Made by a program: the position numbers and the translations under genes. A model generated the notes under the pieces. That model worked only from the letters and a program-made list of their open reading frames with translations, did not search any database and was not told the DNA's origin. This document shows, in pieces, positions 54,172 through 54,718 of a stretch of 64,000 nt of DNA. Within the stretch, counting starts at the first letter, position 1. Each line of letters opens with the position of its first letter. Source of the stretch: Eledone cirrhosa. Taxonomy: Eukaryota. Location of the stretch: positions 10,416,001 through 10,480,000 of the forward strand of contig OZ024750.1 of assembly GCA_964016885.1 (NCBI GenBank). Reading direction: 5' to 3'.

Positions 54172-54381
54172 AAATAAGATTTCGCTGCAAGCATGGCTTT
54201 ATACTAATATGTATAGAAATTTTGTATTTCGTATATATATATATATATATATAATGTAGGAGGTGAGTTTTATTGTAGTACAATAAAGCAATGCAGATAT
54301 CGGATAAGAAGCACTCTACAGTTTGTGGGACTGGAGTATGCATAATATAAGATCAAAAGATGGTTAAAGGAGTTCCATATA

Positions 54382-54448
54382 TTTTATTATGCGCATTTCA
54401 AAAACAAACATCATCAAGCAATAATATTTGTGTTTTCATCAGATAAAA
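54382..54448 (-). ncRNA. Mirror copy of the family D HHR
   Basis: Left arm of the 54342-54677 palindrome. Confidence 0.8.
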
Positions 54449-54570
54449 CAGGAGAACATGATATGAAGGCTAAAAAACACGTGTGGATAGTGCAGTTTTA
54501 AATCAACATATGTTGATTTAAAACTGCACTATCCACAAGTGTTTTTTAGCCTTCATATCATGTTCTCCTG

Positions 54571-54637
54571 TTTTATCTGATGAAAACACAAATATTATTG
54601 CTTGATGATGTTTGTTTTTGAAATGCGCATAATAAAA
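54571..54637 (+). ncRNA. Minimal type I hammerhead ribozyme, family D
   Basis: uuuuau-CUGAUGA-[long stem II acaaauauuauu/gaugauguuugu]-GAA-AU(GCGC)AU-A-auaaaa. Palindromic stem-loop III AUGCGCAU, AUA triplet. Confidence 0.8.
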
Positions 54638-54669
54638 TATATGGAACTCCTTTAACCATCTTTTGATCT

Positions 54670-54718
<49 letters not shown>

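Follow-up and report, generated by a model that had tools for sequence, protein, structure and literature searches.

A spacerless 336-bp palindrome with a hammerhead motif in each arm from Eledone cirrhosa, a likely insertion stump of a Penelope-like element

The window analyzed here, by which the whole 64-kb stretch of Eledone cirrhosa DNA is meant, contains a palindromic unit ordered as (TA)n, 87-bp tail, arm, inverted tail-less arm and (TA)n. Its parts, and the related copies elsewhere in the window, are as follows.

54232-54253, no strand: left (TA)n tract, the likely insertion target (sequence inspection)
54255-54341, minus strand: 87-bp one-sided tail, missing on the right arm and the third copy; both 3' ends occur in runs
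54313-54337, minus strand: bulged tail hairpin, then RCY (9 matches in 5 families; MFE fold)
54342-54509, minus strand: tailed arm, pseudo-LTR-like 3' end of the element (palindrome arm and run data)
54380-54450, minus strand: type I hammerhead motif of the left arm (descriptor match), with predicted cleavage between 54388 and 54387
54507-54512, no strand: CATATG center, a 6-bp palindrome natural to the family, at which the partner arm often has its 5' start (run data)
54510-54677, plus strand: tail-less arm, passing directly into (TA)n, with the same end point in 295 reads of run X24
54569-54639, plus strand: type I hammerhead motif of the right arm (descriptor match), with predicted cleavage after 54631
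54675-54725, no strand: right (TA)n tract (sequence inspection)
About 63626-63739, plus strand: third copy, single, 5'-truncated and tail-less, flanked by TA tracts, differing at 2 positions
9182-9559, 13746-13901, 15955-16196, 31755-31860, 34090-34283, 43560-43684, 51660-51906, 55496-55600, 60731-60921 and 63780-63942: eleven further head-to-head tail-less/tailed units of six other families, picked by eye

Comparison of the arms in the assembled sequence confirmed what a previous sequence-only reading had reported, namely a 336-bp palindrome with no spacer, centered at 54509/54510 and with one mismatch. The arms (54342-54509 and 54510-54677) are 168 bp each and differ by a G at 54481 against an A at 54538; their pairing ends at position 169. 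The 3' tail noted earlier on the left arm is also present, at 54255-54341, and has no counterpart on the right arm. Both ends of the unit run into (TA)n, and a target-site duplication is indiscernible within these flanks.

Each arm carries a motif made up of an 8-bp stem I, CUGAUGA, stem II, GAAA, a palindromic AUGCGCAU stem III and the cleavage triplet AUA. The cores begin at +54577 and -54442, and stem II has 15 positions with one C-U mismatch. The hammerhead descriptor gave 6 matches in the window, while a Markov control gave 0.03 loose matches per window-sized sequence and no strict match in 60 runs. The proposal that each arm holds an intact hammerhead with a self-complementary stem III was upheld. 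Its label as a minimal hammerhead fits less well: the motif is complete, but stem II is long.

Abundance of the family was assessed by aligning a query spanning 54255-54545 (tail and left arm plus 36 bp of the right arm) to 4 of 24 listed runs; no RNA run is among those listed as containing it. X1, possibly the source of the assembly, contained 4,048 matching contigs. In X24, from another study with the same species label, 5,054 of 12.5 million raw RAD reads matched, a count skewed by restriction sites. X4 (organism B) had 25 matching contigs, and X21 (organism D) had 0 matching reads in the roughly 1% of the run that was read. The family has two 3' ends that pass into (TA)n, one at 54342 (tail-less; 295 X24 reads) and the other at the end of the tail. 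Past 54512, other copies run on in differing sequence (208 X24 reads, at a depth of about 374). As copies reaching the center often continue in this way, the CATATG on which the palindrome is centered belongs to the family's natural sequence.

At 54417 and 54379 both arms carry the letter that is in the minority in X1, the other letter accounting for 93% and 75%, respectively, and the third copy has the family-majority letter at both sites. The letter at 54481 is private to the left arm. The shared minority alleles point to one source copy, or to homogenized arms, and both arms likely derive from one template. That the insertion is recent, as described earlier, is plausible on the strength of one mismatch in 168 positions, but homogenization of the arms would look alike.

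Variants of the family were mapped onto the hammerhead from 40 listed rows, with 8 further rows beyond the listing. Nineteen of the 40 fall in 54378-54453, and all of these leave the 11 invariant core positions intact, with variation at N7 and in loop II. Pairing in stems I and II is kept by seven of the eight listed variants at paired positions, and for the eighth there is a partner variant that would give G-C. Statistically this retention is weak: all eight are transitions, a class of change that preserves pairing in 57% of cases by default, so that P = 0.077, for variants that are not independent of one another. A variant at 54394 that breaks stem III was found in X24 only, adjoining a pile-up of read ends at 54397, and likely reflects restriction-site selection. 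At 54407-54415, loose ends in three runs indicate a related subfamily with another stem II loop region.

The arrangement is one already published for Penelope-like elements (PLEs), whose insertions have a head-to-head inverted pLTR, a palindromic junction and an optional one-sided tail (PMC3846280; PMC8557442). The sequence-only reading had proposed an insertion with a 5' inversion, which stands, and had left this published layout of an inverted pseudo-LTR with a one-sided tail unnamed. We consider it quite probable that the palindrome is a head-to-head pair of the hammerhead-bearing end of one abundant family, one tailed and one not, set in (TA)n, and likely an ORF-less PLE insertion stump, probably of the Hydra clade; the clade assignment, taken separately, is somewhat favored. 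The PLE features found are a type I hammerhead with a palindromic stem III, an inverted, 5'-truncated head-to-head copy and an optional tail. Because no RT or GIY-YIG ORF is linked to the family, PLE membership rests on structure. No PLE domain was found among the 128 of 203 window ORFs scanned or in the palindrome copy, and four motif scans gave no loci in metagenome contigs, viral contigs or prokaryote genome contigs. The palindrome itself is ordinary PLE debris.

Compared with published PLE insertions (Arkhipova 2013, PMC3846280; Craig 2021, PMC8557442), the unit shares the head-to-head inverted repeat, the junction palindrome, the one-sided tail, 5' truncation and an AT-rich target. It differs in having no ORF between or beside the arms, a tail of 87 bp rather than 30-40, zero spacer and equal arms. 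Hydra PLEs use (TA)n targets, carry hammerheads and include an Octopus family (PMC8557442 supplement). The Hydra clade of EN+ PLEs (Craig 2021) resembles the palindrome in its (TA)n target and in a type I hammerhead, with a palindromic stem III, close to the 3' end. RWK, DKT and CxCX5C protein motifs, and the lack of CCHH, characterize the clade. The (TA)n preference seen here is common to Hydra, Naiad and Neptune and hence is not diagnostic; Naiad is defined without a canonical hammerhead, whereas the full type I motif is present here. By eye, the family has no visible sequence likeness to Hydra-1_Obim. The Hydra hammerheads listed have a stem II of 3-7 bp and a stem III starting AC, whereas the present motif has a 15-bp stem II, an A-U first pair and AUGC/GCAU as stem III. 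The PLE hammerheads of Cervera and De la Pena (2014, PMC4209133) are alike in their type I fold, palindromic helix III, predicted dimer and opposite-strand pairs. Relative to these, the present motif has the 15-bp stem II, A-U at 10.1-11.1 (G-C in a variant) and no extra post-core base. It is likely a dimer-type motif that would stem from the pseudo-LTR of the parent element.

In the Poseidon PLE, the protein cuts and extends both strands, and two RT starts bound the tail (PMC11167929). The in vitro system of Poseidon PAc (Frangieh 2024, PMC11167929) parallels the present family in having two 3' ends that bound the tail, a stem-loop near the RT start and use of both target strands. The PAc tail lies inside the ORF, whereas the tail here is likely 5' UTR and has another hairpin. 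In the mechanism that we consider likely, the element's GIY-YIG nuclease would nick both (TA)n strands. Reverse transcription would begin at two sites on the element RNA that flank the tail hairpin, yielding a tailed arm and a tail-less arm. Both cDNAs, halted at the same CATATG, would then anneal via this self-complementary hexamer and leave no spacer.

Head-to-head joints elsewhere in the family bear on this mechanism, the statistics resting on 15 listed of 36 joints. In the 14 listed from X1, an antisense copy cut variably at 54285-54462 is joined to a sense start at 54502-54518, and the sense start is 54508 in ten of them. The listed X24 joint (54286/54510; 97 reads, 1 start) follows this pattern too. 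These family-wide joints, with the shared minority alleles, support both the insertion and the inversion; they could alternatively come from one-sided deletion after insertion. The junction statistics of an abundant family can also distinguish two-primer joining from a second route with the same PLE origin, in which a single strand primes itself or folds back to create the mirror arm, a nuclease then resolves the product, and asymmetric copies arise via later deletion. Self-priming has been proposed for such insertions (PMC3846280), and the shared minority alleles are compatible with it. In family B of the window, copy-specific variants are mirrored across the arms, and two copies have the same center, a natural hairpin with a 5-nt spacer. 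Nevertheless, fold-back requires a loop, and the palindrome center is spacerless. Moreover, in 8 of the 15 listed joints the tailed arm is cut inside the tail while its partner reaches CATATG; an arm whose tailed partner is broken there cannot be that partner's fold-back copy. In family B, too, the longer arm can be either one (13746 compared with 63780). Two-primer joining is preferred since the center has no loop and the tail-cut partners could not have templated the other arm, and fold-back is judged rather unlikely.

The fixed partner start at 54508 in 10 of the 14 listed X1 joints could also reflect a short non-autonomous family, retrozyme-like or a mini-PLE, whose RNA starts at CATATG and which is mobilized in trans by a PLE protein. 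The high abundance and the lack of any ORF found would agree with this, and retrozymes have been reported as pLTR-derived (bioRxiv 10.64898/2026.07.22.740005). Metazoan non-LTR retrozymes (PMC7229834) are likewise short, ORF-less and abundant and carry a type I hammerhead, but they form head-to-tail tandems of 150-450 bp, whereas the palindrome is head-to-head. A further trait of non-LTR retrozymes is expression as circular RNA. No head-to-tail tandem occurs at the three window copies, and upstream of the center over half of the X24 depth (208 of about 374) runs on into other sequence. A family of this kind is judged fairly unlikely.

Artifact was also considered. No listed contig piece in the runs searched covers the entire 54255-54545 stretch, and X24 depth drops from about 374 to about 26 just beyond the palindrome center, as an assembly or library fold-back chimera might produce. 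A chimera is nevertheless very improbable, as the right arm stops exactly at the family's natural tail-less end with the tail not mirrored, head-to-head joints at the same center are seen among contigs as well as in an independent raw run, and eleven similar units lie within the window.

The whole palindrome folds into a hairpin of -268 kcal/mol. This perfect 168-bp hairpin and weak miRNA-model matches could suggest a MITE of palindromic form or a host gene for an miRNA/siRNA hairpin. Rfam gave no match at gathering score anywhere in the window; on 54200-54800 it returned 57 weak matches with no hammerhead model among them, the hairpin-type miRNA matches being noise below threshold. Nor do these readings fit a tail on one side only, copies with a single arm, junctions that vary and a hammerhead that is conserved, and we regard them as hardly credible. 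A MITE with fixed terminal inverted repeats on all copies was rejected, being contradicted by the single-arm copy, the one-sided tail and the variable junctions.

Folding was used to assess the fate of the hammerheads in RNA. When two sense copies were cofolded, the MFE structure was a double hammerhead with an intermolecular stem III (-34.9 versus -22.8 kcal/mol), and the monomer hammerhead fold lies 5.4 kcal/mol above its own MFE. Pairing probabilities for stems I/II are 0.89/0.82 in a lone arm and 0.00/0.00 within the whole palindrome, which supports in silico the earlier suggestion that the ribozyme is masked in read-through RNA. Since the antisense arm would be transcribed first whichever flank the read-through comes from, masking is predicted in both directions. 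As the two hammerheads lie on opposite strands, one transcript cannot provide a cis dimer. The assertion that such hammerheads cleave efficiently as dimers went too far: besides this opposite-strand layout, even dimers of PLE hammerheads show low activity (Cervera 2014, PMC4209133), and the Poseidon hammerhead required the element's own protein (PMC11167929). Hammerhead pairs on opposite strands, 100-700 bp apart, were noted earlier (PMC4209133), and a review (PMC6765202) likewise covers such pairs and low dimer activity.

Given this predicted masking of the ribozyme in every read-through RNA, the locus is probably inert, save that it may yield dsRNA. Abundant dsRNA-forming loci have been described in octopus, and a lizard Penelope is heavily edited (PMC5625713). 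If transcribed, stumps of this type would supply perfect dsRNA to a lineage whose editing is very high.

At its start the tail has a hairpin of the pattern ACTC-3bp-loop-3bp-TW-GAGT, then RCY, and this hairpin is present in the MFE fold. The pattern was drawn from four families, and a fifth (16112) was then found by the scan. In the window, 9 matches in 5 families were obtained against 0.38 expected by chance, with no more than 3 in any of 100 controls. RCY follows 9/9 hairpin matches compared with 18/250 GAGT sites, and a microsatellite lies 41-65 nt downstream of 9/9 strict matches compared with 6.4% of background sites. The inner hairpin pairs swap across families (C-G for T-A, G-C for C-G), with pairing demanded by the scan itself. 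Whole tails show no excess of fold stability over shuffled sequences (z -1.65 to 0.34), and MAFFT alignments of tails and hairpins had their 5' strands out of register and were excluded from pair counting. Taken as a peptide, the tail gave no homologue and no Pfam match, and a coding role was dropped on these grounds. The 87-bp tail is likely where the 5' UTR of the parent element's next unit begins.

Published Hydra-clade consensi were inspected by eye, and the hairpin is clear in 3 of 6. Hydra-2_Amil and Hydra-2_Ajap have a bulged hairpin after the hammerhead, with a G-C outer pair and ACT next, and in Hydra-1_Ajap the hairpin lies at the 5' start, about 100 nt ahead of the ATG. It is degenerate in Hydra-1_Crog, and none is visible in Hydra-1_Amil and Hydra-1_Obim. 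The outer pair is A-U in the present family compared with G-C in the Hydra consensi. Four 3'-side 8-mers occur 17 times in the available supplement of PMC8557442, and by eye the full hairpin is found in just 3 of these, all in Hydra files. Naiad_Mmer contains one look-alike hairpin. Motifs derived from the window were not found in the Craig 2021 supplement, where FASTA line breaks may hide matches. The main text of PMC8557442 uses neither 'hairpin' nor 'stem-loop', and 'hairpin' is absent from the available text of the 2026 retrozyme preprint (bioRxiv 10.64898/2026.07.22.740005), its supplements lying outside the search. No description of the tail hairpin was found in the accessible literature searched, a body that leaves subscription papers and Repbase reports outside.

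We tentatively propose, with somewhat less than even confidence, that this hairpin, with RCTC/GAGY as its outer part, an inner stem of 3 bp and a bulge of 2 nt, serves Hydra-clade PLE RNAs as a cis-signal conserved from corals and sea cucumbers to cephalopods, which would position the protein between two RT starts. Each insertion would then prime two cDNAs from opposite strands that are joined head-to-head. Perfect hairpins would thereby be seeded in the genome, the 64 kb of the window containing 12 candidate units, and might be a major source of cephalopod ADAR/siRNA substrates. A cross-phylum hairpin between two 3' ends offers a concrete target for studying how PLEs form the tail and the inverted ends, and it is a potential marker for classifying ORF-less stumps.

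In all, 12 units from 7 families were picked by eye in the window, each pairing a tail-less arm with a tailed arm in inverted orientation between flanking microsatellites. Complete or partial hammerheads are present in at least three families besides that of the palindrome (in family B, by eye). A 118-bp palindrome at 15748-15865 is centered on a (TA)n run and has the polarity opposite to that of the head-to-head units. At 16030 (+), a hammerhead-like motif with core U4 replaced by A occurs in both arms of the 15955-16099 palindrome.

Other hammerheads in the window include a family at 27457 (-), 52056 (+) and 54780 (+), in which stem I pairs are swapped between copies. The copy at 54780 (+), 100 bp to the right of the palindrome, has by eye lost most of stem II. 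A type I hammerhead at 59640-59725 (-) has a long stem III (7 bp and a closing pair) and is likely able to fold as a monomer; an ORF on the opposite strand beside this hammerhead (-59719) had no homologue in the search.

The assembly has a 200-base N gap at about 48860-49060. A 155-aa frame at 57176-57643 (+), which had no Pfam match, presumably resembles, as judged by eye, the restriction-like endonuclease end of a non-LTR retrotransposon. Finally, an intronless ORF at 2514-3080 (-) encodes a 188-aa calcineurin-B-homologous EF-hand protein (Pfam EF-hand_7, E = 6.7e-11). Its best matches are Octopus CHP1-like proteins, at 61-63%, which makes an octopod host likely, and it is possibly a retrogene.
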